Positions 35,858-64,000 of a stretch of 64,000 bases of DNA are shown in pieces. The DNA comes from Thermoplasmatales archaeon (lineage in GTDB: Archaea > Thermoplasmatota > Thermoplasmata > Thermoplasmatales > Thermoplasmataceae). Positions within the stretch are counted from its first letter, which is position 1; every line of letters starts with the position of its first letter. The stretch is taken from positions 22,302 to 86,301 of the forward strand of contig JAJSLM010000006.1 in assembly GCA_026127925.1 (NCBI GenBank). The letters run 5' to 3'. Under the pieces are notes generated by a model. The model was not told where the DNA came from. It ran no database searches and saw nothing but the letters and a program-made list of their open reading frames with translations. A program made the position numbers and the translations under genes.

Positions 35858-36214
35858 GTAAGCCACCATCGATCTAAACGATTGCGTTCAGATTCAGGAA
35901 ATACTGAAATTGTTACAAAGATTTAAACATGCCTATGGACGACGGTTGTTCATTTTAATTCGGTTAGAAGATTTCTATAGATATATTTTCTAATGGAATT
36001 TAAAAACAATTGATTTTCCGTTCCTCCCTATTTCGACGGAGGTCGAGCACCATGGAGCCTGTTAATGGTAGGGATATATTAAATCTAAGAATCGCGTATA
36101 AAATGTTCCTGAATTCGATAATGAATTGTTAGCGTGATTTTGCTGATGCAAAACAGGTCTATGATAGCTAATTAAGATAACTATTTATACAGATGATGTG
36201 TTATGTTACTAACT

Positions 36215-36811
36215 ATGAAAGCAAATGAGGTATTAAACCTGTTGCGTATTTCCAGAAAAACGCTTCATGTATATGCATCAACAGGCAAAATAAAATTTAC
36301 AGTTATGCCTAATGGCCATTATGATTACAATGATGAGGATGTTTATAAATTATTGAATAAAGATATTAAAAGAAAGACGATCATCTATGCAAGGGTATCA
36401 ACAACAAAGCAGAAGAATGATCTCGAGAACCAGATACAGCAGTTAAAACAATGGTGCTTTATGAATGGTTATACTATCAATGCGATATATTCAGATGTCG
36501 CGTCAGGAATATCGTTCAATAAGAGGAAAGGACTCTTTGAACTGCTCGATGAAATTATAAATTATAGAGTAGAAAAGGTAATAATAACATATAAAGATAG
36601 ATTAAGCAGAGTTGGCTTTGATTTATTTAAGCATCTTTTTGCTAAATTCGGTACAGAGATTGTTGTTATTTCCGATGTAGGTAGTATAAAATTAGATTCA
36701 GAAGAGATTTTTGAGGACATCATAAGTATGCTTCACTGCTATTCCATGAAGATGTATTCAAAGAGAAGAAAGAATTCAATTGAGGTTGGATATGAAGGTA
36801 ACGAGGACTGA
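36215..36811 (+). CDS. tnpA: IS607-type transposase TnpA (MerR-like HTH plus serine recombinase/resolvase domain)
   Basis: IYARVSTTKQ catalytic serine motif and resolvase core (DRLSR); N-terminal HTH. Confidence 0.85.
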   Translation: MKANEVLNLLRISRKTLHVYASTGKIKFTVMPNGHYDYNDEDVYKLLNKDIKRKTIIYARVSTTKQKNDLENQIQQLKQWCFMNGYTINAIYSDVASGISFNKRKGLFELLDEIINYRVEKVIITYKDRLSRVGFDLFKHLFAKFGTEIVVISDVGSIKLDSEEIFEDIISMLHCYSMKMYSKRRKNSIEVGYEGNED

Positions 36812-38036
36812 ACAGATCTTTATCCGAGACAATGGCACAGTATCTGAAATGTGCCATATATCGAAGAATCTCTATAATCAGGTCAATTACATTCTGAGAA
36901 ACCAGTTCTTCAATAAGGAGAAGATGTCTTCTTAGAAGGAACTTGCAAGACAATTCTCAAGGCCATCTGAGATAGAAGAAAACAACAACTTCCAGAAGCT
37001 CCCAGCACAGACAGCACAATGGACAATAAAGAAGGTAAAACAGTCATGGAATTCATTCTTCAAAGCCATGAGATCATGGAAGAAGCATCCGGAATTATTC
37101 AAGGGAGTTCCAAAACCACCAAGATACAAACATAAGGATGGAGAATTCATTCTCGTATTCACCAATCAGCAGTGTAGTATCCGCGATGGTATATTGAGAT
37201 TCCCAAAAATAATGAATCTGGAGGTTAAGACGAGACTAAAAGATGTGAATCTGAGAGAAGTGAGAATAATACCATTGGGGATCGGTTATAATATCGAGAT
37301 AGTGTATGTGAAAGAGATAACAGATACTTCTGAAATAAAGGCAGAGAGGATTATGGGTATTGATATCGGTGTGAGAAACCTCGCAACCATCGGTAACAAC
37401 ATTCCCGAACAGGGAATTGCTGTAAGGGCGGGATTGATCAAGTCAATAAATCAATACTTCAACAAAGAACTTGCAAGATACAGAAGCATAAACGATCTAC
37501 AGGGAAACGAAAGAAAGGACACAAAAAGGATACGAGAGCTCTTCATGAAACGGAACAACAAGATCAAAGACGTAATGCACAAGGTATCCAGATCAATAAT
37601 AGACTATGCAAAGTCGAAGAACATCGATACAATAGTCATAGGGCACAACGATGGATGGAAGCAATCGGTTAACATGGGAACGAAGAACAACCAGAATTTC
37701 GTTCAGCTCCCCTTCGATACATTGATCCATCAGATTAAGTACAAAGGGGAAGAGATCGGAATTAATGTAATTGTACAGAGAGAGGATCACACAAGCAGGT
37801 GTTCATTCCTTGACAATGAAACAATAGAACATCATGACACATACATGGGAAATAGAATAAGGAGAGGCACATTCAGATCGGCTAACGGAACTCTCATCCA
37901 TGCGGATCTCAATGCATCATACAACATAATAAAGAAGGCAATCCCTGAAGCTTTCGCGAACGGGATAGAGGATATCGGGTTATACCCAAGAAGTTTAAGC
38001 ATCAGACAGATGATAACTTCCAAAGGTGGATGTTAA
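36792..38036 (+). pseudogene. tnpB: TnpB (OrfB, RuvC-like RNA-guided nuclease family) interrupted by an in-frame TAG at 36933-36935; a 322-aa ORF resumes at the internal ATG 37068
   Basis: Manual translation from ATG 36792 gives MKVTRTEQIF...ILRNQFFNKEKMSS*KELARQFS...KLPAQTAQWTIKKVKQSWNSFFKAMRSWKK, continuous with the 322-aa ORF in one frame. RuvC-I GIDIGVRN and RuvC-III HADLNASYNI motifs are present. Confidence 0.75.
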
Positions 38037-38093
38037 CATGGTTAACGGAAATCATAACCTAGTGCGAAGCAATTGTGGTTATAGTGACATAGT

Positions 38094-38741
38094 TTGTTCA
38101 AAGACAGAAAGGAAGCTGGGATTAAACTTGTCAATATCCTCTCAAAAACTGTTCATGCTCCGTGTGTTATTTACGCAATTCCAAGAGGGGGTGTTCCAGT
38201 TGGTTTCGAGATAGCAATGAGAATGAAATGTCCTTTGGAGATCATAGCTGTAAAAAAAATAGGAGCACCTGGTGATGAGGAATTGGCTCTGGGAGCAGTA
38301 ACCGAAGGCAATCCAAAGGAACTGTTCCTGAATGAATATATTATAAGACAATTTCACATCGACAAAGCTCAGTTGGATAGCATCATCAACAGAAAGCATC
38401 ATGAGGCTGATGAACTCGGAAATATATACCGTCAAGGAAGACCAATGATTCTAAACCGCGATGCAGTATCAATTGTGGTCGATGATGGGATTGCTACAGG
38501 TGCAACGGTTATAGCTGCAGTGAACCTCCTGAAGAATCGTGGGCAGGAAAGAATCATAATAGCAACACCTGTTGTAGAGGAAAGTACCGCAGGGCGCCTG
38601 AGATCAATGGTCGATAACCTTGTCTCGGTGGATTTGCCCAAAGAAATGTATTCTGTTGGTGAGTTTTACCAAAATTTTCCGCAAGTTACGGATCAGGAAG
38701 TAATAGTGGCGATGGATAATTCAAGATATTTTATGAACTAG
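38094..38741 (+). CDS. Predicted phosphoribosyltransferase (type I PRTase domain)
   Basis: VSIVVDDGIATGATV PRPP-binding motif. Confidence 0.7.
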   Translation: MFKDRKEAGIKLVNILSKTVHAPCVIYAIPRGGVPVGFEIAMRMKCPLEIIAVKKIGAPGDEELALGAVTEGNPKELFLNEYIIRQFHIDKAQLDSIINRKHHEADELGNIYRQGRPMILNRDAVSIVVDDGIATGATVIAAVNLLKNRGQERIIIATPVVEESTAGRLRSMVDNLVSVDLPKEMYSVGEFYQNFPQVTDQEVIVAMDNSRYFMN

Positions 38742-38770
38742 ATTTAACGTCAGAAAATTCTCATCACTTT

Positions 38771-38850
38771 CGGATGCCAGGAACATCCGACTTCAAAACA
38801 TTTCAATTTCCGAAACGCGTTAGAAATTCTGTCAAAAAAATTTTTTTTGG
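38771..38850. terminator. Candidate bidirectional terminator between the convergent PRTase and rrp42 genes
   Basis: Hairpin CGGATG-ccaggaa-CATCCG at 38771-38789, then palindromic A7T9 tract at 38834-38849. Confidence 0.4.
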
Positions 38851-38859
38851 ACCAGCCCC

Positions 38860-39654
38860 TTATGCTGGTTCTTCCGAGAAAAATTTCTCTCTCAGGGTTT
38901 TACCGACCTGAAGAGAATTGTTAATGGCTGTTTTGACCTCATCCATCGTGAGATAACCTACCTCGCCTTTCTGCATGGCCCTGATATGCCCATCTTCCGT
39001 TGTTGTCACAGTAATCCTTGTAGAACCCATCTGCTCTTCCTCTGTATCGGGATCACATACCAGGACATCACCTATTTTTGACATGGTAACCGATATCGGA
39101 ATATGCTTCAGAACAAGCTTTGTATCTTTCCCACCCTCTTTCGAACCAGGAATAACAGCATTCCTCAGGGCGGATACAGCTGCAAGTGTGCACGCATCGA
39201 TGAGGTTCCCGTCAAAGTCCAGCACATCAATATCAACAAATACGATCCACACTTTTTCTCCGGGAGTTATGACGAGGCTATCCATGTCTATCATTTTACT
39301 CTCTCTGATTCCACGATCTACGACACGGGCAAGTTCAATTGTACCCTCACCTGGAGGTCCAGATTCAAACGTTGGGAACGCCATAGGAAGTAACTCTACA
39401 TTCGTAGTCAAAACACCACTGTCCGGGGTGTCGGGAAAAGGCTCTCCAGATTCTATTTTGACACCGGCGACAACTTTTGTCTTTCCGAGTTCAACTCTGG
39501 CAGAACCAGAAGCCCTTGGTACGTAACCAGGAAAGATCTTTATTTCCCTGAAATCAAGAGGTGATCTCCCATCTCCTCTCTTTCCCTCTTTCAATCTATT
39601 GATTATGTAACTTTTCTTGATCTCAGATAATACCCCTGCTTCATCTTTCGGCAT
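38860..39654 (-). CDS. rrp42: Exosome complex component Rrp42 (inactive RNase PH-like)
   Basis: RNase PH fold pattern, ~264 aa, directly downstream of rrp41. Confidence 0.8.
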   Translation of the reverse strand: MPKDEAGVLSEIKKSYIINRLKEGKRGDGRSPLDFREIKIFPGYVPRASGSARVELGKTKVVAGVKIESGEPFPDTPDSGVLTTNVELLPMAFPTFESGPPGEGTIELARVVDRGIRESKMIDMDSLVITPGEKVWIVFVDIDVLDFDGNLIDACTLAAVSALRNAVIPGSKEGGKDTKLVLKHIPISVTMSKIGDVLVCDPDTEEEQMGSTRITVTTTEDGHIRAMQKGEVGYLTMDEVKTAINNSLQVGKTLREKFFSEEPA

Positions 39655-40400
39655 TATTCACCACCTTCCTCAAGTGCTATATCTCTGTATTTCCCTGCAA
39701 GGGCTTCCCTCTGGATCTCGCTGATCCTTTTTATGGCATCGTCTATCATTTCGGTTGCCTTGTTGAATTCTTCAATCGTCAAGTCTCCATCCATCTGCAT
39801 CAGCACTATCTTCCCGGATTTCACCAGCTGCGCTATCGGGAGATCCGCTTCACCGAAGTTATCCTCCTCCTTGCCAAGATCCAGTACTATCTGTCCTGCC
39901 ACCTTCCCGGCTGTACATCCCGCGACCATATCCCTCATAGGAATGCCAGCGGCAGCCAGGGCTACGGCCGATGCTGTAAGGCCTGCTATCCTTGTCCCTG
40001 CATCTGCCTGGAGAACCTCGATAAAAACATCGATCTGGGTTCTCGGGAACTGCTCAGCAAGAATTGCAGTCTGCAGAGCTTCAGATACAACCTTTGAGAT
40101 CTCTATTGATCTCCTGTCAGGTCCAGGCCTCTTTCTTTCGTCGACTGAGAAAGCTGCCATGTTGTATCTCGCTTTAACTACTGCCATATCCATGTTCTGC
40201 GTGTGCTTAGGATATGCTTCCCTTGGTCCATACACGGAGGCAATAATCTTGTTGCCTCCCCATTCAATCATCGCTGATCCATCAGCATTTTCTAATACGT
40301 CCGTCTGTATCTTTATAGGTCTAAGTTCGCTGGGAGACCGGCCATCTAACCTGAGGCCGTTCTCGTCTATTAACTTTAGATCTGTTTTTGCTCCACCCAT
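39654..40400 (-). CDS. rrp41: Exosome complex exonuclease Rrp41 (RNase PH-like)
   Basis: LRLDGRSPSELRP N-terminus and RNase PH motifs, 248 aa. Confidence 0.85.
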   Translation of the reverse strand: MGGAKTDLKLIDENGLRLDGRSPSELRPIKIQTDVLENADGSAMIEWGGNKIIASVYGPREAYPKHTQNMDMAVVKARYNMAAFSVDERKRPGPDRRSIEISKVVSEALQTAILAEQFPRTQIDVFIEVLQADAGTRIAGLTASAVALAAAGIPMRDMVAGCTAGKVAGQIVLDLGKEEDNFGEADLPIAQLVKSGKIVLMQMDGDLTIEEFNKATEMIDDAIKRISEIQREALAGKYRDIALEEGGE

Positions 40401-41090
40401 CTAATTTCCTCCTTTCAATCCTTTCAAAAAATTCCCAACTCTATCTGTCAATCCATTTGTGTGCGCTTCCCTTTCAACCATCCTAATTGCAGAAACTGCA
40501 TTCATTATGTTCTCAGGACTTCCGTCTATCCAAATTAGGCCGTTTTGTCCAAGTACGATTCTTGTTGATGTCGCATCTTTTATCATGTTGACCATATTTC
40601 CACCCTTTCCTATGATCCTCGGGACCTTTGGGGAAGGAACGGATATAATGTGTCCACCTTCTAATTTCCTCAAGCCGACATCTCTCAGAGTGATCCAGCT
40701 CTCCTTAAGCTCGTTAACTGTCATAACTTTTGCATACACGTAGTCCCCCATGGAAAGGTATTTCTTCAGTTCGCCACTGTTTATGCGCCATGGGCTGTCA
40801 TTTGAATGCAGCATCGTAAGGTATGCTGAATTGATATCTATCGTCCACATGGAAGGTCCGATGTCTATGACTTTTCCAATAACCTTGTCGCCCCTTCTTG
40901 GCACATATCTTCCATAAAATGGAACTACGTCTACGAAACCATTTCCCGTTTGGACTACACCAAAATATGAGGAACAGAAATTATTCTCACTGCATTTATA
41001 GATCCCGTTTCTTGGTCTGTCCTGAGTTATCTCAATTACGTCTCCGGGAACCACTATTCTTTTTGTGTCCATTGTTTGTTCACCTGTCAA
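40401..41090 (-). CDS. rrp4: Exosome complex RNA-binding subunit Rrp4 (S1 + KH)
   Basis: S1 domain then KH motif IGKGGNMVNMIK. Confidence 0.85.
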   Translation of the reverse strand: MTGEQTMDTKRIVVPGDVIEITQDRPRNGIYKCSENNFCSSYFGVVQTGNGFVDVVPFYGRYVPRRGDKVIGKVIDIGPSMWTIDINSAYLTMLHSNDSPWRINSGELKKYLSMGDYVYAKVMTVNELKESWITLRDVGLRKLEGGHIISVPSPKVPRIIGKGGNMVNMIKDATSTRIVLGQNGLIWIDGSPENIMNAVSAIRMVEREAHTNGLTDRVGNFLKGLKGGN

Positions 41091-41344
41091 GTATCAAGCC
41101 AATTGCGCACTCAGAATCCAATGCATCCATAACGGACAGGACACAACTCCCGCCTTAAATATGTCTGGATGGAGTGATCAACTGGATATTTTTTACTCTC
41201 TTTTCGGTCTTATATGATACCTGACTATTTATTATTTATTTAACTCCATCTGATGTTCTTGAAAAGAGGTGACTTGGAGTCGAAGTATCGGCCTATGAAT
41301 CTAATTCGGACACGGTAGAAGCTGTTGAATCCAAACACAGGCAC

Positions 41345-42091
41345 TTACGGAATCACGCGGCTGTCCTTGAAATCTTTGATAAATCCCTCAGAGGTATTTT
41401 TCGAATCCGACGTAGGATTTCTGTTTATAAGAATGGCATTCATTCCAGATTCCCTGGCAGCCCTGATCTCCTTCTCAGAGTCAGATATGAAGATCAAATT
41501 TTTCTTATTTTTTCCTATTTTTTTAGCAATTCTGCTATAACTCTCAGGGTCTGTTTTCTTCCCAACGGACATATCGAAAAATCCATCTATGTACATCGCC
41601 AGGTCTCCGTACACAGTTGTGCTGAAAAGAAGTCTTTGCGACAGGGCGCTTCCTGATGAATATATGTATATCCCTATGCTTCCACCCCTCCATTTTTTAA
41701 ATGCCTCAGGTACGTCATCGTATACCTCGCCTCTTATGGATCCATTTCTGTACCCTTCTTCCCAGATGAATCCCTCTATCTCTTTCAATGGAGCTGTCTT
41801 ACTGTCCTTTTCCACCAGGTATCTTATTGCAGACGATACACGATTGAGAAAATTTTCTGTAGCATACTTATCTGCTGGAACAAATTCTAAAGGTAGATCT
41901 GGGAGTATTCTAAGTCTTTCAATACAACCAGCAATCTCAGGCCTACGGTAATTACTGTGCAAAAACGTTGCGACGTTTTCCTTGACGTAATCAAAAAGTG
42001 TGGAGTGAACAAATTCAATTGGGGTAGTAGTTCCTTCAATGTCCAGTATCACAGAGTTAATGCCAATATCCACCAGACCCATTAAGATCAT
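41345..42091 (-). CDS. mtnC: Enolase-phosphatase E1 (HAD hydrolase of methionine salvage)
   Basis: VILDIEGTTTPIEFV signature; likely start ATG at 42091 forms an ATGA overlap with the mtnD stop. Confidence 0.7.
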   Translation of the reverse strand: MILMGLVDIGINSVILDIEGTTTPIEFVHSTLFDYVKENVATFLHSNYRRPEIAGCIERLRILPDLPLEFVPADKYATENFLNRVSSAIRYLVEKDSKTAPLKEIEGFIWEEGYRNGSIRGEVYDDVPEAFKKWRGGSIGIYIYSSGSALSQRLLFSTTVYGDLAMYIDGFFDMSVGKKTDPESYSRIAKKIGKNKKNLIFISDSEKEIRAARESGMNAILINRNPTSDSKNTSEGFIKDFKDSRVIP

Positions 42092-42705
42092 CTTCGCTTT
42101 GTTGTAGGTATATACGAAGGCCCAAAACATACGGGCTCATATGATTGCTCCTTTCCACTTCCCGTGTAATAAGGAGTCCAGCCAGCTGGGTCCTGAAACA
42201 GCCTTATAGCCTTGATCCTTTTTTCGTTGCATAGATCAAACCAGTGTCTCGTTCCCCTGGGTATGCGGATAAGATCGCCTGTCTCAACCTCTACTGAAAC
42301 AACTTCATCCGTTTCAGTATGGATATAGAATATACCTCTGCCCTCTATTGCGTACCTCACTTCGTCTTCGCTGTGCGTATGTTCCTTCCTGAACTTTTGA
42401 AGCATAGAATCAAGATCAGGGGTATCTGGTTTCATATCAATTACGTCTGCCGTTGTGTAGCCACCTATTCTCTTGAGTCTCCGCACATCTTCATCGTATG
42501 CTTCAAGAATCTTTTCTGGATCGGTTTCATCACTGCTTAATTTGCCAGTATCCCACCTTTCGTAATGTATCCCTATATTTTCCAGAAAAACTTTTGCCTC
42601 TCCACTGCTTTCAATCTTTATACCTTTGTCAGGAACGCTTATAACTACCATTGAATCATCACCTTTTTCTCTTAAATTACATTCCGGAATTAACAAGCCT
42701 TCCAT
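42088..42705 (-). CDS. mtnD: Acireductone dioxygenase (cupin)
   Basis: HTHSEDEVRYAIEGRGIFYIH...IRIPRGTRHWF cupin metal-site pattern of the ARD family. Confidence 0.7.
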   Translation of the reverse strand: MEGLLIPECNLREKGDDSMVVISVPDKGIKIESSGEAKVFLENIGIHYERWDTGKLSSDETDPEKILEAYDEDVRRLKRIGGYTTADVIDMKPDTPDLDSMLQKFRKEHTHSEDEVRYAIEGRGIFYIHTETDEVVSVEVETGDLIRIPRGTRHWFDLCNEKRIKAIRLFQDPAGWTPYYTGSGKEQSYEPVCFGPSYIPTTKRR

Positions 42706-42766
42706 GGACCTCCAACAGGAACTCTAAGACTTCAGTATGCCTCTTTGCAGCCTCAACATTATTCCC

Positions 42767-43342
42767 TCATACATACAGGCCATGGCCGGAAAGAAGGAAA
42801 CAATGTAGGTTTTTATCATTTTTGAGTAAATCGTTGACCTTAGCGGAAAGGGAGAGCATGTCCTGCGAATTTTCTAAAACCGGGATCCATTCGGAATGAT
42901 CGTGAGATACTACGTTTTCAAGTCCTTTGAGCATTTCATATCCCTCCATCTGAAATCCCCCATCCTTGAGGTATTTCTTTGAGAGAATTGTTCCCCAAAT
43001 AGAGTGAGTGTGGAACACGGCGCTACAGTTCCTCTGTTTGATCGCAGCAACATGAAGCAATGTTTCACTTGATGGTTTTCTCTCCCCGGAGAGGATTCTT
43101 CCAAGATCATCAACGTAAACTATGTCTCGCAAGTTCAACATGCTTTTGTCAAGGCCGCTTCCCGTAATGGAAAGAACAAATGGAGATCTCGAGATCAGTG
43201 CACTCAGATTCCCGCTTGTGCCAAAAAGCCATCCTCTTCTGTAGAATTCGTACGCAATTTTTATTAGATCGAGTGAGACGTTAAGATTTGCTTCCCGAAT
43301 CCCCTGGTTTCCTACATTTACTTCCTGCAATTTATTTGTCAC
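42767..43342 (-). CDS. mtnB: Methylthioribulose-1-phosphate dehydratase / class II aldolase-adducin family
   Basis: SGNLS, HTHS and GHG motifs of class II aldolase/MtnB. Confidence 0.65.
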   Translation of the reverse strand: MTNKLQEVNVGNQGIREANLNVSLDLIKIAYEFYRRGWLFGTSGNLSALISRSPFVLSITGSGLDKSMLNLRDIVYVDDLGRILSGERKPSSETLLHVAAIKQRNCSAVFHTHSIWGTILSKKYLKDGGFQMEGYEMLKGLENVVSHDHSEWIPVLENSQDMLSLSAKVNDLLKNDKNLHCFLLSGHGLYV

Positions 43343-43591
43343 TCTAAGGTCCGATTAAGTCATGCTGTTTTAATTTTTTGTGCTAATTTATTACCATTGG
43401 TAATTTACATGATCCAAGCTAGTGTAATATAATTGCCCTATCGTAATATTAGAAACGGGCCGATCCAATGAAGATATTAAGGAGTGAAAAGACTTGGGTT
43501 GACTTGATGGTTATAAGCAGTAGAGGACTATTTGCTTAATTCTAATCCAAATGTTTCTGTAGGAGAATCTTTAGTTGATTTTGATATAAAT

Positions 43592-44284
43592 CTATGGCTT
43601 AAATTCTTGATGCTGAAATAAGTAGATGTAAGAAATGACCATTATTATTGCTAGGAAAGAGGCAGTGGCAAGGCCAAGAGAAGGATCCACGTTAATAATC
43701 CCCTTCTTATAATATTCGAAGCTAGTTAACGGGGTTAAGAAATAAAGTATCATCCCCATGGGCAATCCCGAGGTTATGCCAAGGCTTACATAATTTTCAA
43801 TCAATTCTACTGCAGCAATAGGGATCAAAAGAATAAACACTATACTGATCATAAATGCATTCAACTGAGAAGGCGATAGAGAGGATAAAATGGAAATCGA
43901 CGCATATACCAAAAGAGAAATTAAAATTGGGATAACGAGAAACGTGTTTTTTGTGATCAATAATATGGATACCTCTGTTACTATGAATGGTAAAAGGCCC
44001 AGTGCAAATACTATAAGTTTTGAAATTGCTATTCGTTTCCAACTTCCAAGGAAGGAAAGTTCGAAAACGGTCATAAGTTTATTACGAGTAAAGTGTGATC
44101 CGACAATTAAAATAATAAATGGAATCAGCAACATCTGAGTCAGCAATGAAAATTCCACAAGGCTCTTCAGATATTCAATAGTGTATAATTGTGTAAGAAT
44201 GATCATAGACAATATAGGAACATATATTGGCAGAGGGAATACCCCTTTTAGATACCACTTAACGGTCATTGTCAAATTGGCCAT
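43592..44284 (-). CDS. ABC-2-type transporter permease
   Basis: Six hydrophobic helices; overlaps the ATPase gene by 26 nt. Confidence 0.5.
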   Translation of the reverse strand: MANLTMTVKWYLKGVFPLPIYVPILSMIILTQLYTIEYLKSLVEFSLLTQMLLIPFIILIVGSHFTRNKLMTVFELSFLGSWKRIAISKLIVFALGLLPFIVTEVSILLITKNTFLVIPILISLLVYASISILSSLSPSQLNAFMISIVFILLIPIAAVELIENYVSLGITSGLPMGMILYFLTPLTSFEYYKKGIINVDPSLGLATASFLAIIMVISYIYLFQHQEFKP

Positions 44285-57928: not shown

Positions 57929-58258
57929 CAGACACCTTTAATGATTTAATTTTCCCCAGTTTAACGAGAGCTAATCACGTTTCATAGTTCTACTGACCCC
58001 TGGGGAATTTTTCGCCCACCGCTGATCGAGTGATCACTGCCTGGATTTCGGCCAGCTGCTGAACTCGAGGCCCATGGTTGGGCGAATTTTATTCCCATGT
58101 CGTCATATGTGATCATGAATCACACATACTATTTTATGGGACAAATACCAGAGCGTAATCGCATAATAATAATTTACCCCAGTCAATCAAGTATATCTAT
58201 TAACGATAACGAAGAAAAATTATAATGATAATAACTATGTCGTCTGGTTGAAAAGGGG

Positions 58259-58331
58259 CTTGTGGTCTAGCGGTTATGACATCGCTCTCACACAGCGAAG
58301 GTCGCCGGTTCAAATCCGGCCAAGCCCATTC
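58259..58331 (+). tRNA. tRNA-Val (anticodon CAC), no encoded CCA
   Basis: Manual fold: acceptor GGGCTTG/CAAGCCC plus discriminator A, anticodon stem TCGCT/AGCGA with loop CTCACAC, T-arm GCCGG-TTCAAAT-CCGGC. Confidence 0.85.
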
Positions 58332-58550
58332 TATATACGGTTTAGTTTTTTACAATATTACCTAAAATACTAGACCTGCAATCAACTAAATGGTACATGT
58401 ATCAAGGAGTATTTTCAGGTTTGCTTATATACTCACGGTTTACATTTTGAAATATAATAATGGTCGAATACAAGGACACAGAACATTAAACATCACCAGT
58501 ATCTTTTGTTTCATCGTGTGTCCTTTAATAGCCTATTAGGTTATTGAATA

Positions 58551-58961
58551 CTAACTTCTAAAATTAGGGAACTTACCCCTGTGATGCAGTTCAAATTGTT
58601 TCTTTGGAGGTTCAGTTTTTTGGTTGGTGTTATATTTAGGTTTATTCTCATAAATTAACTGCTTCTCTATTTTGAATGCAACGTCCTTTGGCACCTCTGT
58701 TATGTAAACTGACTTTCCTGTCCCTTCCATACATGCATCTAAAACTGTCCAGTCATGGTAATAACGGGCTCTTATACCTCCTGCCCACAATTTTCCATCC
58801 TTCTCTCTTTGTTTTTGAGTGGTGGCACCGATGTAAAGCGGTACATTATTTGAATCCGCAACCACATATACGCAAGGGAATTCATATTTCCCTTCATCAT
58901 TTTCTATTATTTCCTTCCAACTGGAAAACCTCAACCACTTCAATTCTATCCGAGCTGCCAC
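58551..58961 (-). CDS. GIY-YIG nuclease-domain protein
   Basis: CVYVVADSNNVPLYIGATT (GIY-x10-YIG), then conserved R (GGIRARYYH) and E/N (IYENKPKYN). Confidence 0.55.
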   Translation of the reverse strand: MAARIELKWLRFSSWKEIIENDEGKYEFPCVYVVADSNNVPLYIGATTQKQREKDGKLWAGGIRARYYHDWTVLDACMEGTGKSVYITEVPKDVAFKIEKQLIYENKPKYNTNQKTEPPKKQFELHHRGKFPNFRS

Positions 58962-59130
58962 TGACTGTTCAATATTCTTGAGACATATAAATCCTTCCTC
59001 TTAAAATAGGACCAAAATCTAATAGCCATTAACATAAGCGTTCTCGGATATATTCCTATCATTAAAAATAAGCAGACACATCGGTTGCGTCAATAACCAA
59101 TGAATAAATAGGTTCATAAGATTCATTTGC

Positions 59131-59652
59131 ATGGAAGCTTCAGAGAAAGTAGTAGAAAGTTATTTCAGATATGTGAAAGGATACTTCACAATTCCCAATC
59201 TAAGATGTAGGGGTCAAAAAGAAGTTGACCTAATAGGAATGAAGGAAAGTGATGGAAAAATTCAAAGAATTCATGTAGAAGTGAGCGTAACAACATCCGG
59301 TGAATTCAATAAAATAAACGCTAAGCCTTATTCTGAAGCTAAGAAAAAAACTAGAGGTGGATCTGCATCGGAGAGAGTTAAGATAGGTTACTTCACCGAT
59401 AGCAAATTTAACGATTCAAATGTGTTGTCGACGCTAAAAGGTTATGGATTTTCAAAAGATAATTACGAAAAGATAATTGTATCATGGGACTGGGAACCGG
59501 CAGTAGAACCCATTTCTAAAAAAAAGGAGATCAAGCTCCTAAGATTTAAGGATATACTGAAAGAGATGATGGATGTATTTGGAAAGAAGGAATCCTATTT
59601 CTCAGATGATACGGTCAGATTGCTGCAACTTCTAAAAAAAAGCAGGGTTTAA
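59131..59652 (+). CDS. Hypothetical protein, possible Hjc/PD-(D/E)xK-like nuclease fold
   Basis: KEVDLIGMKESDGKIQRIHVEVSV resembles the Hjc xDLIA...IEVK core, but the lysine is replaced by serine. Confidence 0.3.
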   Translation: MEASEKVVESYFRYVKGYFTIPNLRCRGQKEVDLIGMKESDGKIQRIHVEVSVTTSGEFNKINAKPYSEAKKKTRGGSASERVKIGYFTDSKFNDSNVLSTLKGYGFSKDNYEKIIVSWDWEPAVEPISKKKEIKLLRFKDILKEMMDVFGKKESYFSDDTVRLLQLLKKSRV

Positions 59653-59724
59653 TTGAAAGACCTTTGTGAAATTTAGCTTCTTCTTATATGATATGAGCAG
59701 GATTAATATTACTTCAAAAGAAGG

Positions 59725-59886
59725 TCACTCAATCTTCCTAACCACAATCTCCCCTTTAATTTCATAAAATCCTATATGTTCCGATTCTGAAACATTCAAC
59801 TTCTCTGCTATCTCTTTTGGTAAAGTGATCCTCAATGATGAGCCCCTGGAAGATGTCTTCGATACTGCGATTAGTTTATCTGACAT
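59725..59886 (-). CDS. Small AbrB/MazE/SpoVT-type (swapped-hairpin) DNA-binding protein, 53 aa; not in the ORF track
   Basis: Manual translation: MSDKLIAVSKTSSRGSSLRITLPKEIAEKLNVSESEHIGFYEIKGEIVVRKIE; the RGSSLRITLPKEIAEKL pattern is typical of AbrB-like antitoxins/regulators. Confidence 0.5.
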   Translation of the reverse strand: MSDKLIAVSKTSSRGSSLRITLPKEIAEKLNVSESEHIGFYEIKGEIVVRKIE

Positions 59887-60144
59887 TGGGAGGGTAATAA
59901 ATTAAACTTTTCATTAAAATTTTTCCAGTAAAAAGTAGTTTCTACACTTACCTATTTAGAGATGGATGAAGAGGTTCCATTTTCTTAGGTTCCTCTATTT
60001 CCAAGATTGTCTTAAGGAAAGACCAATTTAGTTCAAAAATAGGCGCGGCAGACCATGAACATAGAAATTATCATGAAGGTTGACGCTTTATTGACAAAAT
60101 TTATGTTCAGATACCGGACATGTTCATGGAAGGTTACCTTAATC

Positions 60145-60693
60145 TTACACAGAATTATGGAAACTACGATCATTCTTGAATGAATTTATCCAGTTATCGT
60201 AAATGTTCTTATTTATTTGCTTAGGGGAGTCAACTGATCGGCAAACATAGTATTCGGATTCTTTGTGTTTTCCGATGTAAAACTGTTTTTTGTTCATATT
60301 GTATTGCTCGACTTCTTCTCTACGGAATAAGAAGATCTTGGTGTCTATCGATATTCTTGAATTTTCTCCTTTTTCTCCTTTGGGGATGAAAGGGAAGTAC
60401 ACAGTAAGAACAAGGAAATCTAGGTGTTGATCGATTTTGACAGGTTTGCTAAACCAGCCATGAAATTCTACTTTGTATTTCTTTTGATCTGATGGGGATG
60501 TATCATAAGACCTTGAACTTTTTATCTGAAAGGTTACACTTTTTCTGGTTTCTATATTGAGTAATGCTACATCAAAGTACTTCTGTTGCCTGCTGGTCGG
60601 AATAACCACAGAATACTTATCTTTGTCGAAGCTCTTTGAGAGAGTATCAGCAAATTCAAACTCAGAATACTCTAAAGTAAAAAATGGCTTCAA
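60145..60693 (-). CDS. Hypothetical protein downstream of the methyltransferase (candidate nuclease/accessory subunit)
   Basis: ORF only; weak D...E.K-like FDVALLNIETRK stretch. Confidence 0.3.
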   Translation of the reverse strand: MKPFFTLEYSEFEFADTLSKSFDKDKYSVVIPTSRQQKYFDVALLNIETRKSVTFQIKSSRSYDTSPSDQKKYKVEFHGWFSKPVKIDQHLDFLVLTVYFPFIPKGEKGENSRISIDTKIFLFRREEVEQYNMNKKQFYIGKHKESEYYVCRSVDSPKQINKNIYDNWINSFKNDRSFHNSV

Positions 60694-61028
60694 GAGAATG
60701 TTCTCCCGTATTCTAACATATCAACAGTCATAATGTTTAGCAATTTAACTCTTCTCATACCCTTATCTTACGTTGACCTGAGTAAGAAAGTAGGCTTATC
60801 TTTCCATATAACTGGCTTTCATTGGCAAAATGACATTGGTGCCCTAATGGACCATTTTACTCTTTTATTTATTACAAACACATACTGATAGGACATTAAC
60901 CATAATTATGTGTAGGACTAACGATACCTCTATTTTCTTCCAATATCAAGAATATCGTTGAGTTTCCTACATTCTCTAATGGCATTTTTACAGTTTCTAT
61001 TCTTTTTACGATACGATTCTTAAAGGCA

Positions 61029-61931
61029 TCAAGTGGATATGTTCTCTCCGTTTAAATTCTTACTAAATAAAAATTCTCTATCTAAATCTGCATTTCGAGG
61101 AGTCCACAAATTATTGAGATTTTCAGTGAAATAATAATCCCTGCGGTATTTATCTATGCTATCGCTTGGTCTTAATTCCCTTAATCTTTCTTCTATCTTT
61201 TTAGTATTTACTGGGTCGATTTCAATTCCAATATACTTTCTCGATAGCTGTTTCGCTACCACTAGAGTCGTACCCGTCCCTGCAAACGGATCAAAAACCA
61301 AATCTCCAATATTGCTGGAAGATAATATTATCCTCAGCAGAAGAGCTACAGGAGATTGTTGTTTGTGAAATCTTTCACCATTTTCCATCCTTAGTGCTTC
61401 ATCACCAGCAAAATATCCTGATGTTAGTTCCCTAATATCATCCCATACGTCAGTAACATACATACCATTTGGTCTCTCATACCTTTCCGTAATTAATCTT
61501 GGTGGATTTATCCTAAGTTTATTAAAAACTCTTGGTTTATCGCCCTTTGTAGCAAATACAATTATTTGATAATGCAATCCAAATTTGTTATTCTGTGGAA
61601 CAGCAGACGTTTTCTTTTTCCATATAATTAAGTTCTGGTAAGTCCAGCCGGTATCTTCAAGAACCTTCATTACTCGAGCTGTATTCTTCTCTCTTTGCAT
61701 AAAATATATTGAACCACCATCAGAAGTCCTATTATATATCAATCTGCAAACCCTTTTCATGAATATCCAATATTCCTCTTCCGGGATATCATCATCGCTA
61801 ACTCTGTAATCTTTTCCTTGATTGAAAGGGGGGTCTAAAAAAGATAGATCTATTTGAAGGTCTTTTTTTGGAGTTTTCGATAGAAACTTTACGCAATCGT
61901 CATTAATTATCATGTTTTCCTTCATTATCAT
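61029..61931 (-). CDS. Beta-class DNA methyltransferase (N6-adenine or N4-cytosine)
   Basis: Motif IV DPPF near the N-terminus and motif I LVFDPFAGTGTT near the C-terminus (the IV-then-I order defines the beta class). Confidence 0.85.
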   Translation of the reverse strand: MIMKENMIINDDCVKFLSKTPKKDLQIDLSFLDPPFNQGKDYRVSDDDIPEEEYWIFMKRVCRLIYNRTSDGGSIYFMQREKNTARVMKVLEDTGWTYQNLIIWKKKTSAVPQNNKFGLHYQIIVFATKGDKPRVFNKLRINPPRLITERYERPNGMYVTDVWDDIRELTSGYFAGDEALRMENGERFHKQQSPVALLLRIILSSSNIGDLVFDPFAGTGTTLVVAKQLSRKYIGIEIDPVNTKKIEERLRELRPSDSIDKYRRDYYFTENLNNLWTPRNADLDREFLFSKNLNGENIST

Positions 61932-63418
61932 GCCTCACCTAACAACGTTTTTAAGTCTAACTTGAAGAATTCTCCCTCTTTTATTATCAATTTATACTGT
62001 AATAGCTTTTCAATTATACTTTCACCGTTTGTCATAGGAAATATTTCTGAAAGCTTTTCCTTTAACTCTGGTTCGGTATGTTTCCTATCAGACAGATAAT
62101 AAAGAACCATTGCACATAGAAAGTCAGAAGTTTCTATAACGTTCTTGTTTTTATTGAATTTTTTTATCAAGATAGAGGCGTATCTCCCTATTTGATAAAG
62201 ATTCCTTTTTAAATTTATGTCGCTTCTCACTATCACTCTGCTAAATAAATTCCTCACATCCTTATCTGGCTTGACTCCGTATACCTTGAAAATAGATACA
62301 GCATAATCTTCTTCTTTTTCAGATAAATAATTTAGCAACTGGATAGAATCGTCAAAAATATTGTCATAATCAGCTTGAGCTTTTCTAATGACGTCCAAAT
62401 TCGATTCAATAGTTATGGTTTCAGTATTTGCTCTCCAAAGAGCCTTCTTCTTGGCATATCCTAAATTCATCTTATTGAGATTCACCGAGCTTACAACGAC
62501 TCTCTTTTCAGTAATTATAAGCTTTGCATGAAGGGGATGCTTTGGTTTTCTTAGTTCAATGTTATTAGCCATCAATCTTGGGTATAGTTCTCTTATCCGT
62601 TCATTGAAATCTTGGCTTTCGCTACCTGTAAGTATTTTGATTGTTTTACCCTTTATAGAATTAGTAATCAAAAATGGTATGATTGCTGTATCTGTGAAAC
62701 TTTCCGTGGATATATAAACATAATCAGAGGCTTCGCTTATTACCATCTCCCATAAATCTCTGGCTTTGCACTCAATAGGTGCAATGTAAACCTTGTCTTC
62801 AATAGATGTAATGTTCTTACATATCTCTGCGGGATAATCCCTAATCCAATGTAACTTCACTTCCGGTTCGGTTATTGTCCTTGGTGCAACGAACAAAGCT
62901 TCTTTACTGTCATATGTCGTCTGCTCTACTAAATTCTTAATACTCCCTTCTCCAAATAATGCCAATAAAGTCAGAAATTTTTCATTAAACTCTTTGATTT
63001 TTCCTTCTTCTTTGTATATTAGCATGGCGTCTAGTTCCGGTTCTTCCGTAAGATTGGCAGATAAGGATATCGCTACGTTATCCGTTACTAAAAATTTACC
63101 ATGAAATGAATACCACCGACCTATCGCCGTTGTTGTTCTCTCAGGGTCTCCTATTCCCCATTTTGAAAAATATACCTTAGCTCCATTGGTCTTTATTCTT
63201 TCAATCCTGTCCTTTACTTTGTCCCTAATATCCTCATTTATACTATCGTATGGTAAAGTAAAAATCTCAACTTCGATACCCTTTGTCAAAATGCTGTCAA
63301 TAGCGTCATATATAAATTCATTATGAATTTGAAATACAGCTATCCTAACGTATTTTTTTGCCTCTTTAATCTCTTTAACCACGCGGTCAATCACATCTAG
63401 ACTAAACTCGAATTCCAT
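61928..63418 (-). CDS. Phospholipase-D-superfamily nuclease with two HKD motifs and a ~190-aa C-terminal extension (candidate restriction endonuclease)
   Basis: HGKFLVTDNVAISLSANLT and HAKLIITEKRVVVSSVNLN (HxKx4D/Ex6SxN twice); no TM segments; 4-nt overlap with the MTase gene. Confidence 0.75.
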   Translation of the reverse strand: MEFEFSLDVIDRVVKEIKEAKKYVRIAVFQIHNEFIYDAIDSILTKGIEVEIFTLPYDSINEDIRDKVKDRIERIKTNGAKVYFSKWGIGDPERTTTAIGRWYSFHGKFLVTDNVAISLSANLTEEPELDAMLIYKEEGKIKEFNEKFLTLLALFGEGSIKNLVEQTTYDSKEALFVAPRTITEPEVKLHWIRDYPAEICKNITSIEDKVYIAPIECKARDLWEMVISEASDYVYISTESFTDTAIIPFLITNSIKGKTIKILTGSESQDFNERIRELYPRLMANNIELRKPKHPLHAKLIITEKRVVVSSVNLNKMNLGYAKKKALWRANTETITIESNLDVIRKAQADYDNIFDDSIQLLNYLSEKEEDYAVSIFKVYGVKPDKDVRNLFSRVIVRSDINLKRNLYQIGRYASILIKKFNKNKNVIETSDFLCAMVLYYLSDRKHTEPELKEKLSEIFPMTNGESIIEKLLQYKLIIKEGEFFKLDLKTLLGEA

Positions 63419-63475
63419 TGTTATCCCTTTATCTATTGTTTTTACAATTAATTGTAGTTAAACTCGATGATACGG

Positions 63476-63799
63476 TTACCTAGTACAAGATTTCTTAATA
63501 TAGTATGTTTCAGACCTATTTACTGTCTCAACATAACGAGTTTCTATTTTACTATCAGAAACCATACTATCTAAAAGCTTACCAAAAGAGAATCCTGTCA
63601 TTAACGCGTCAAACATTTTCCAACCTATAGTATCTCTAGGCTTTGTAAAAGACAAATTTGCGTTCAGTGCCATTTGTATTTCTGTCTGAGTCCGAGCTTT
63701 GCAATCACCAAGTAATTTTTCAATAGCGCCCTTTAAAGTGGTTTCAGTATATCCTTTCTTAAATTCGTCAGAACTTATTGCCATGAATAGCCATAACAT
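63476..63799 (-). CDS. Hypothetical protein
   Basis: ORF 57 nt upstream of the PLD-nuclease gene on the same strand. Confidence 0.3.
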   Translation of the reverse strand: MLWLFMAISSDEFKKGYTETTLKGAIEKLLGDCKARTQTEIQMALNANLSFTKPRDTIGWKMFDALMTGFSFGKLLDSMVSDSKIETRYVETVNRSETYYIKKSCTR

Positions 63800-64000
63800 T
63801 ATTAAATAAAATGCTTACTTACGATGCTTAATACAATTTATTTCCCTTTGAGGTTGTCTCCAAAAATTATATCAGCACCAGAAAAATCTTTCACCAATCT
63901 TGGTCATCATCCTCATCATCAGAGCCTAGATGGTCGATTATCCATGCTAACCCCTTCGCAATATCCTTATTCTTCTGCCATTGAAGTTTTTCCTTTTCCA

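Follow-up and report, generated by a model that had tools for sequence, protein, structure and literature searches.

An IS607-family element of a Thermoplasmatales archaeon whose zinc-finger-less tnpB is a probable pseudogene

IS607-family elements such as IS607 of Helicobacter pylori and ISXfa1 encode a TnpA that combines a MerR-type helix-turn-helix (HTH) with a resolvase-type catalytic domain, carry an overlapping tnpB downstream, and have an omegaRNA (reRNA) encoded by the tnpB 3' end together with the element's right end. The RuvC-II-rearranged TnpBs, termed Ealt, 'TnpB2', or RIIr, have glycine in place of the canonical RuvC-II glutamate, an alternative glutamate just before an H/Y-T-S motif, and [N/H]ADxN in RuvC-III. 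TvTnpB of Thermoplasma volcanium, a protein of this Ealt class from a Thermoplasmatales host with its alternative glutamate at position 323, was shown to be active as a nuclease (Jiang et al. 2023, PMC10530073). Zinc-finger loss in large TnpB branches is also already published, and the account of these branches describes conserved catalytic residues but, between RuvC-II and RuvC-III, no C4 zinc finger (Altae-Tran et al. 2023, PNAS, PMC10691335). The pro-Fanzor TnpBs and Fanzor2 are associated with IS607 elements and possess an alternative RuvC-II glutamate. The locus described here resembles each of these systems, and in it tnpB is interrupted by an in-frame amber codon. In the window, that is, the whole 64-kb stretch of DNA that was analysed, it is flanked by rpl37ae on one side and by a phosphoribosyltransferase gene on the other, and its features are as follows.

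36160..38060, plus strand: whole IS607-family element, 1901 bp, starting TATGATAGC (36160) and ending ...CATAACCT (38060), from the bounds of similarity to the sibling copy L001
36160..36202, plus strand: left end (LE), starting TATGAT / TATAGT; TAT[AG][AG]T is conserved in 14 independent insertions with unrelated upstream DNA
36203..36811, plus strand: intact tnpA for a serine recombinase with a MerR-like HTH and a catalytic domain of resolvase type, from Pfam and alignment
36792..38036, plus strand: tnpB pseudogene, 414 codons with one internal stop on translation
36933..36935, plus strand: in-frame amber TAG, codon 48, presumed ancestral Tyr TAC, from translation, the sibling copy, and archaeal relatives
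37068..38036, plus strand: residual 322-aa ORF, residues 93-414, from the first in-frame ATG after the stop, missing most of REC as well as the first strand of WED
37362..37364, plus strand: RuvC-I Asp191 (GIDIG), invariant in alignments
37641..37643, plus strand: invariant Gly284 (IVIGHN) in place of the canonical RuvC-II Glu
37782..37784, plus strand: alternative RuvC-II Glu331 (Q-x-E-x-H-T-S-K), invariant in 52 sequences
37791..37898, plus strand: remnant of the TNB domain, residues 334-369, that lacks zinc ligands; no CxxC in relatives, Pfam TNB profile still matching
37905..37907, plus strand: RuvC-III Asp372 (HADLN), invariant in alignments
37931..38060, plus strand: smallest extent of the omegaRNA (reRNA) scaffold, beginning inside the 3' part of tnpB and reaching the right end, from conservation and covariation
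38061..38080, plus strand: predicted guide segment AGTGCGAAGCAATTGTGGTT in the flank after the scaffold, from the scaffold/flank boundary and known TnpB biology

The IS607-type assignment made in the original prediction was borne out by the serine-recombinase TnpA, by the overlap of the tnpB ATG at 36792 with the end of tnpA, which runs to 36811, and by ends common to independent insertions. In Pfam searches TnpA matched Resolvase (E=4.9e-22) and, weakly over residues 5-50, MerR_1 and HTH_17; the catalytic-serine context YARVSTTKQ was present, and all 202 aa aligned free of stops to the corresponding proteins of loci L008, L011, L001, and L010 at 86-88% identity. The true start of tnpA may be the ATG at 36215, as called in L001. 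The tnpB gene lay directly downstream on the same strand, as it did in L001, L008, L011, L010, L015, L024, L002, and L003. Identity between the window copy and L001 was 95-98% inside the element and approximately 39% in the flanks, and the right end was shared by 26 insertions whose flanks were unrelated. Unlike IS607 and ISXfa1, the element has an archaeal (Thermoplasmatales) host, and its ends read TATAGT... and ...TAACCT in contrast to the GG core described for those elements (PMC10711439). No GG was present at the ends, no core dinucleotide common to both junctions was identified, no target duplication was obvious at the junctions, and the 14 left flanks gave no TAM consensus beyond an A-rich last base.

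A search for a conserved omegaRNA scaffold across the tnpB 3' end and the DNA downstream of it, suggested as a check in the original prediction, uncovered a covarying scaffold at 37931..38060. Its 130 nt were near-invariant in 26 loci, third codon positions included, and similarity among these loci was lost abruptly after AACCT. The consensus structure contains 32 pairs and was 98% paired, compared with 35-47% when the structure was slid along the sequence; compensatory changes were observed in 23 of the 32 pairs across 58 model-aligned matches, and none of 500 shuffles reached the observed values. The covariance model scored the window scaffold at 154.5 bits, as high as intact copies, and no Rfam family matched the 3' RNA. 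The scaffold of IS607 elements has been described as possibly including the first base of the flank (PMC10711439), which bears on where the predicted guide begins.

The amber codon, TAG at 36933-36935, interrupts tnpB at codon 48 of 414 as had been noted. The tnpB translation matched the Pfam families OrfB_IS605 (E=2.2e-16) and Cas12f1-like_TNB (E=1.6e-8), and more than 100 homologues in Thermoplasmatales (67-82% identity, 412-418 aa, without a break at the amber site) covered 100% of the 414-residue frame, including the segment 5' of the stop, which is homologous to TnpB N-termini. The proposal of a TAY-to-TAG change at a conserved aromatic position also held: the amber column was occupied by Tyr in 17/17 full-length homologues in the protein alignment, and the codon was TAT in 17, TAC in 12, and TTT in one of the archaeal relatives compared at the DNA level (TAT/TAC in 29/30). 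The closest copy, the sibling L001, has TAC at this site, which points to a single C-to-G change of Tyr48 TAC; the ancestral TAC would here be taken from a sibling that is itself frameshifted and not from an otherwise intact gene. With the amber at codon 48 and no full-length ORF, the tnpB at 36792-38036 is a pseudogene as the sequence stands, in agreement with the first of the two readings, decay or N-terminal truncation, that had been offered.

The G at 36935 is known from this single assembly of the exact copy, and several features of the data would suit a TAG that arose as an error of consensus or assembly, or that belongs to a minority allele, with TAC as the dominant sequence and the gene intact. 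The source is a MAG (GenBank annotates P0121 as 'MAG: transposase') and the window is its consensus, IS copies are repeats prone to collapse by assemblers, the independent Logan assembly of the same population (L065) is interrupted 27 nt into the IS, counted from its right end, and the remainder of tnpB looks functional, with intact catalytic residues and a low dN/dS. Substitution errors are nevertheless rare in a short-read consensus, the truncated ORF was also seen by the GenBank annotators, and the lesion of the sibling L001, reproduced in three assemblies, is a real inactivation within this subfamily; on balance we regard an artefact as unlikely. Exact-protein look-ups with the 322-aa ORF or the 336-aa GenBank version revealed no other assembly of this copy, those with TnpA (two starts), the 47-aa N-terminal fragment, or L37ae gave no match, and that with the downstream neighbour returned one contig, which was broken inside the IS. 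The exact 24-mer spanning the lesion had no match in JGI metagenomes. The best locus among GTDB representative genomes, which do not include the source genome, was 84% identical.

An in-frame TAG is odd within a gene that looks otherwise intact, and some Thermoplasmata, the Methanomassiliicoccales, decode TAG as pyrrolysine. Were the amber decoded, whether as pyrrolysine, through a suppressor tRNA, or in programmed read-through, a full-length TnpB would result. TAG, however, ends 14 of the 61 long ORFs in the window (23%), the neighbouring gene included, and recoding is therefore improbable; the only tRNA in the 64-kb window is Val(CAC), with no tRNA-Pyl within it. The hosts of the close homologues are acidophilic, non-methanogenic Thermoplasmatales (Thermoplasma, Ferroplasma, and Acidiplasma), none of the 30 relatives has TAG at codon 48, and the lesion of the sibling copy is a frameshift and not a TAG. 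Recoding of tnpB was accordingly dropped on the grounds of stop-codon usage and taxonomy, and we give it the least credence of the alternatives considered.

We return to the amber as an inactivating mutation and to the sibling copy L001, which is 97% identical and lies in a different genomic context. Alignment with other copies had been put forward as a check of the amber, and L001 answered it in two ways: it retains TAC, and it carries a +1 frameshift (an extra A) 5 nt downstream of the amber site. Both the TAC and the extra A were seen in three independent assemblies. Between the window copy and the sibling, dN/dS was 0.17 for the 322-aa part (13.5 synonymous and 9.5 non-synonymous differences) and 0.10 for codons 1-47 (4 synonymous and 2 non-synonymous), the latter counts having p~0.013 under neutrality by our own binomial estimate. 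Values of 0.1-0.17 between the copies indicate that both lesions, the amber and the sibling frameshift, are probably recent, and the two appear to be mutually independent. The mostly synonymous differences in codons 1-47 further suggest that full-length TnpB was the selected unit until recently. No intact copy of the IS subfamily (>95% identity) was found anywhere searched, blastn, tblastn, and a covariance model detected no further copies within the 64-kb window, and a plasmid collection gave just distant IS607/TnpB matches of 60-80% identity.

That two independent lesions fall within 6 nt of each other in the only two known insertions of the subfamily could mean that the site is a mutational hotspot, or that loss of TnpB is a selected off-switch, leaving an element of tnpA and omegaRNA that is served by TnpB in trans. 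The tnpA gene, the ends, and the omegaRNA are still intact, and the scaffolds of the two copies are near-identical, so use in trans is conceivable. A rationale offered for an off-switch is that an active nuclease is perhaps costly. The sibling, however, was found via the common 322-aa ORF, a route that would have picked up a lesion anywhere in codons 1-92; after allowing for this, such closeness is somewhat unexpected, with a chance of approximately 4-5%, and the figure comes from just two events. The lesion site showed neither a repeat nor structure nor a homopolymer of more than 3, and other relatives are intact there. We consider a hotspot or off-switch quite improbable, less so than recoding and more so than an artefact.

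The second reading in the original prediction was that the locus expresses an N-truncated, zinc-finger-less TnpB from ATG 37068. GenBank entry P0121 is a 336-aa version of the same residual ORF with a non-canonical ATA start. A functional protein, 322 aa long if begun at ATG 37068 and 336 aa if begun at the ATA, would be in keeping with an open residual ORF, with unaltered D191, E331, and D372, and with a low dN/dS against a sibling that carries the same residual ORF. Residues 1-92, however, are conserved in all homologues, and in the AlphaFold prediction they make up the initial WED strand and the bulk of the REC helices with a pLDDT of ~90, the best-predicted part of a model that was good over residues 1-175 and fell below 50 in the TNB remnant and the C-terminus. 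Published TnpB structures assign to WED and REC both recognition of the TAM and binding of the guide-target duplex. Purifying selection on codons 1-47 between the copies would be unexpected if the truncated ORF alone mattered, and no homologue group naturally starting at this point was seen in the searches run; the short matches that were looked at either came from close copies sharing this residual ORF or were truncated at contig ends. An N-truncated TnpB is thus very unlikely, only slightly less so than recoding, and the residual ORF is presumably without function. As a separate observation, the low dN/dS of the 322-aa part would also fit ongoing selection on the residual ORF, and the overlapping RNA explains it in part.

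A further claim was that the C-terminal region retains a single cysteine where TnpB usually has CxxC...CxxC. This description is accurate: the region TSRCSFLD...RGTFRSANGTLIHADLN has one Cys (C337) and no CxxC. Its use as a second sign of decay did not survive comparison with relatives, as full-length, conserved relatives lack CxxC as well (112/113 scorable cluster representatives), and CxxC...CxxC was absent from every close or distant relative compared. C337 itself is not conserved in the wider clade, where Ala, Thr, or Val occupies the position. The missing zinc-finger cysteines are the ancestral, stable state of a large, multi-phylum TnpB clade and not damage. At 50% identity this zinc-finger-less clade comprises more than 110 clusters, from Thermoplasmatales, Altiarchaeales, Asgard archaea, cyanobacteria, and Bacillota, and no assay of any member was found in the literature. 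An alternative Cys/His metal site (C337, H347/H348, and H370) was considered and dropped, since neither C337 nor H347 is constant across the clade. The one zinc-finger-less branch named in the account of Altae-Tran et al. (2023), RIIIr-4, has His in place of the RuvC-III Asp; that Asp is intact here, which suggests that the present clade is among the unnamed 'some large branches' of that account.

The motifs of RuvC-I and RuvC-III are intact as predicted, and a relocated RuvC-II glutamate, Glu331, which had gone unmentioned, accompanies Gly284 at the canonical position. The position of Glu331 is that described for Ealt or rearranged TnpBs (PMC10711439; PMC10530073). Fold matches were to Cas12f, ISDra2 TnpB, ISFba1 TnpB, and Fanzor2 (9b0l), and profile alignment to AsCas12f (8j12) placed a stretch with a conserved E-D-L opposite a gap beside GHN, the glutamate of this AsCas12f stretch being presumably the catalytic one. 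Compared by description, TvTnpB differs in its IS605 (Y1) TnpA and TGAC TAM, against a serine recombinase here, and in having Glu 323 where this protein has Glu331 (PMC10530073). The defining pattern of the pro-Fanzor TnpBs as described by Yoon et al. (2023; PMC10711439) is unmatched, RuvC-I being D-I-G and not D-P-G and CxxC...CxxC being absent.

We propose that the serine-recombinase TnpA would move the element and that the omegaRNA scaffold, formed by the tnpB 3' end and the right end, would be extended by approximately 20 nt of flanking DNA as guide. In the intact relatives, which are presumably active nucleases, the TnpB-omegaRNA complex would be expected to cleave the site where the element is absent or has been excised, so that the element is kept in the population. 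In the window copy a single C-to-G change would have turned Tyr48 TAC into an amber codon, full-length TnpB would not be made, and tnpA, both ends, and the omegaRNA scaffold would have been left intact. On the whole we judge it probable that this is an IS607 element with a recently pseudogenised, zinc-finger-less, RuvC-II-rearranged tnpB and with intact TnpA, ends, and omegaRNA scaffold.

The locus is best annotated as an IS607-family element with a tnpB pseudogene and not as a 336-aa 'transposase' with a non-canonical start. The missing zinc finger is normal for the whole branch, and the broken copy itself therefore adds little, being an ordinary case of known kinds of element. If a hotspot or off-switch did operate at the lesion site, the clade of Ealt TnpBs without a zinc finger, which occurs in acidophilic archaea and further afield and has a highly conserved omegaRNA of 130 nt, would constitute a natural test of whether the zinc finger is dispensable in RNA-guided cleavage. 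The absence of zinc-finger cysteines in a TnpB is no sign of decay unless its relatives have them, and the zinc-finger-less clade is of possible interest for compact nucleases and for the role of the zinc finger.

The tnpB gene of the window copy has recently been knocked out by a TAC-to-TAG change. Translation bore out the original prediction of an amber-interrupted frame followed by a 322-aa ORF, in its coordinates as in its description. The start ATG of tnpB overlaps the 3' end of the upstream 202-aa ORF.

Features of the IS607-family element
36160 (TATGATAGC...) to 38060 (...CATAACCT), forward strand: IS607-family element, delimited by similarity to L001, a contig with a sibling copy
36203-36811, forward strand: tnpA, serine recombinase of 202 aa (Pfam Resolvase, E=4.9e-22; weak MerR/HTH matches)
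36792-38036, forward strand: tnpB frame, 414 codons with a single internal stop (translation)
36933-36935, forward strand: in-frame amber TAG, codon 48 (translation of 36792-38036)
From 37068, forward strand: residual 322-aa ORF, opening at ATG, the first in-frame start past the stop (ORF list)
37931-38060, forward strand: putative omegaRNA scaffold, sole window match of a 130-nt covariance model (154.5 bits, on a par with intact copies)

The interrupted frame gave OrfB_IS605 and Cas12f1-like TNB matches in Pfam, and a protein search with it returned 1816 matches. Nearly all of the best 120 were 412-418 aa long and 67-82% identical and covered 100% of the 414-residue frame, confirming that the N-terminal piece is homologous to TnpB. 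The amber column held Tyr in 17 of 17 full-length homologues in the protein alignment, Tyr48 was at least 90% conserved in a 52-sequence alignment, and the DNA codon at this site in archaeal relatives down to ∼37% identity was TAT (17), TAC (12), or TTT (1). The conserved Tyr and these codons, 29 of 30 of which are TAT or TAC, agree with the predicted TAY-to-TAG change and indicate that the lesion is one third-position change within a conserved Tyr codon. The main uncertainty is the reality of the G at 36935, because the sequence is a MAG consensus. There was no sign of amber recoding in the window, where TAG terminates 14 of 61 non-overlapping long ORFs and the sole tRNA is Val(CAC). This tRNA (58256-58328) lies in a stretch (58001-64000) with a GC content of 0.34-0.36, compared to ∼0.42 elsewhere in the window, that may be a foreign island. 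The element has archaeal housekeeping genes for neighbours (by Pfam, L37ae, Pus10, and exosome RNase PH subunits), and the nearest TnpB homologues are from Thermoplasma, Ferroplasma, Acidiplasma, Oxyplasma, and many Thermoplasmata MAGs.

The one match at 97% identity, P0019, likewise consists of a 322-aa ORF. The contig on which it lies, L001 (MAG GCA_021846745.1), carries the same IS at another location, adjoining a pyridoxal-dependent decarboxylase gene. Alignment of the two copies, as the original prediction had proposed, revealed that the sibling keeps TAC at the amber site but has its own lesion, an extra A 5 bases downstream (AAGGAAACTT against AAGGAACTT) that throws the frame into a stop. 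Two ENA assemblies from other samples (L062 and L063) have the same insertion with the identical extra A, so the sibling lesion is genuine. The combination of TAC plus the extra A in the sibling, whereas the window copy has TAG, shows that the two copies were inactivated independently. Over the 322-aa part the copies show 13.5 synonymous and 9.5 non-synonymous differences (dN/dS 0.17), and over codons 1-47 they show 4 and 2, respectively (dN/dS 0.10); by our own binomial estimate, which ignores transition bias, at least 4 synonymous changes of 6 would occur with P ∼0.013 under neutrality with ∼19% synonymous sites. The low dN/dS values in both parts indicate that selection was acting on the full-length protein as the copies diverged and that both lesions are recent. 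The closeness of the two independent lesions is the only loose thread; it is mildly odd (∼4-5% by chance, by our estimate), and we treat it as unexplained rather than meaningful. The sibling was discovered via the shared residual ORF, so any lesion within codons 1-92 would have qualified.

The missing zinc-finger cysteines had also been taken as a possible sign of decay. The region from the H-T-S motif to RuvC-III, TSRCSFLDNETIEHHDTYMGNRIRRGTFRSANGTLIHADLN, does contain a single Cys and no CxxC, but the same pattern, TSK[C/A/T]SFLD...RG.F.S..G..I[H/N]AD.N, was seen in every close homologue aligned, and it recurs in the distant relatives retrieved from Altiarchaeales, Heimdall- and Hodarchaeota, Dehalococcoidia, Bacteroidetes, Nostoc, and Bacilli. 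A profile searched against 1.84 billion cluster representatives yielded 1635 matches at E≤1e-30; among the best 150, a RuvC-III motif was recognisable in 113, of which 112 had no CxxC pair. The absence of CxxC in close and distant relatives shows that the cysteine loss is ancestral and clade-wide and hence no sign that the window copy is decaying. Cys337 was ruled out as a residual zinc ligand because some clade members carry Ala, Thr, or Val in its place. Zinc-finger loss in large TnpB branches was published by Altae-Tran et al. (PMC10691335).

Motifs RuvC-I and RuvC-III are intact, as predicted, with D191 (GIDIG) and D372 (HADLN) invariant in the clade. The canonical RuvC-II position is an invariant Gly284 (IVIGHN), and Glu331, directly ahead of H-T-S-K, is invariant. 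In a profile alignment, the conserved E-D-L stretch of AsCas12f (8j12) faces a gap beside GHN, and we infer that its Glu is the catalytic one. The clade thus has the "alternative glutamate" arrangement, which has been reported in Fanzors and in some TnpBs (PMC10711439; PMC10530073). A Thermoplasma volcanium TnpB of this class is an active TAM-dependent nuclease with no collateral activity (PMC10530073); it was described with an IS605 TnpA and has Glu323, whereas the window clade has Glu331. The RuvC-I of the window protein reads D-I-G rather than D-P-G, which rules out a "pro-Fanzor" identity. For this clade the lack of a zinc finger and the relocated RuvC-II glutamate are the norm, and both are already known from the literature.

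An N-truncated TnpB expressed from ATG 37068 had been offered as the alternative to a decaying gene. The AlphaFold model (52 sequences) had a mean pLDDT of 71, with ∼90 for residues 1-175 and <50 for 333-361 and 389-414. Foldseek matched it to AsCas12f, the ISFba1 and ISDra2 TnpBs, and Fanzor2 in the PDB, where matches by sequence were remote only (∼E=1e-7). In the model, residues 1-98 comprise one strand, the first of WED, and four helices, those of REC; the residual ORF begins at residue 93, without them. In published TnpB structures these regions hold the guide-target duplex in place and make contacts with the TAM, and a working 322-aa enzyme is unlikely because they are missing.

A search for an omega/reRNA scaffold at the tnpB 3' end, also proposed originally, yielded a candidate. 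The last ∼130 nt of tnpB plus 27 nt past the stop are nearly invariant in nucleotides among 26 loci, and similarity stops abruptly after AACCT. RNAalifold predicted five hairpins or stem segments; on an unbiased MAFFT alignment 98% of cells pair, versus 35-47% with slid partners, with double changes at 7 pairs. In a model-fitted alignment, which leans towards the structure of the covariance model, compensatory changes occur at 23 of 32 pairs and no shuffle attains the observed values. The covariance model also matches behind distant homologues, and Rfam has no family matching the 3' RNA. The conserved stretch thus appears to be the expected omegaRNA scaffold. Four loci (L009, L014, L042, and L027) have 9-nt insertions in hairpin CATC-AGACA-GATG (38001-38012) that lengthen its stem or loop and are translated as 3 extra TnpB residues (e.g., SIPEFIRMIT in the homologue P0103); the hairpin bases serve RNA and protein alike. 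The covariance model also picks out a second omegaRNA-like copy, lying a few kb from the main copy, in L054 (5748-5877), L016 (476-605), and L039 (577-707), at 84-116 bits; these may be neighbouring or remnant elements. The predicted guide would be the flanking sequence that begins at 38061 (AGTGCGAAGC...), and in IS607 elements the scaffold may extend to include the first flanking base (PMC10711439). Only 33 nt (interval 38061-38094) separate the right end from the annotated TTG start of a downstream phosphoribosyltransferase gene, so the predicted guide overlaps the likely promoter region of that gene (TTATAG, ∼38080).

The element is of the IS607 family and seems to have kept its tnpA, ends, and omegaRNA scaffold intact. 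Its flanks are ∼39% identical to those of L001. The left-end motif TAT[AG][AG]T opens 14 independent insertions, and no TAM was readable from their left flanks. In the window copy and sibling, TATGAT (36160-36165) recurs as the reverse complement ATCATA (38051-38056) just before ACCT, a 6-bp inverted repeat only partly kept in other family members. The 3' half of tnpA (36501-36791) is only 82.5% identical to L001, compared to 95-98% for the rest of the IS, a pattern suggestive of recombination between IS variants in this patch; the nearest relatives differ for TnpA (loci L008, L011, and L010) and TnpB (L001 and L002). Many relatives (L004, L005, L006, L009, L013, L014, L016, L031, and L042) retain an intact tnpB and omegaRNA with tnpA absent, frameshifted, or remnant; the opposite holds for the window copy, where tnpA is intact but tnpB is broken. 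The same population was also assembled independently (L065; Logan SRR15116022); that contig is 100% identical over 5.7 kb (38034-43741) and begins 27 nt within the right end of the IS, so the IS is either repeated or polymorphic in that sample.

The GenBank annotators likewise recorded only a truncated gene: MCW6170814.1 ("MAG: transposase [Thermoplasmatales archaeon]", 336 aa) is the window frame from ...KKVKQSW on (37026-38036), started at the ATA codon for Ile79 of the full frame, with Met replacing Ile. This entry ought to carry a pseudogene label.
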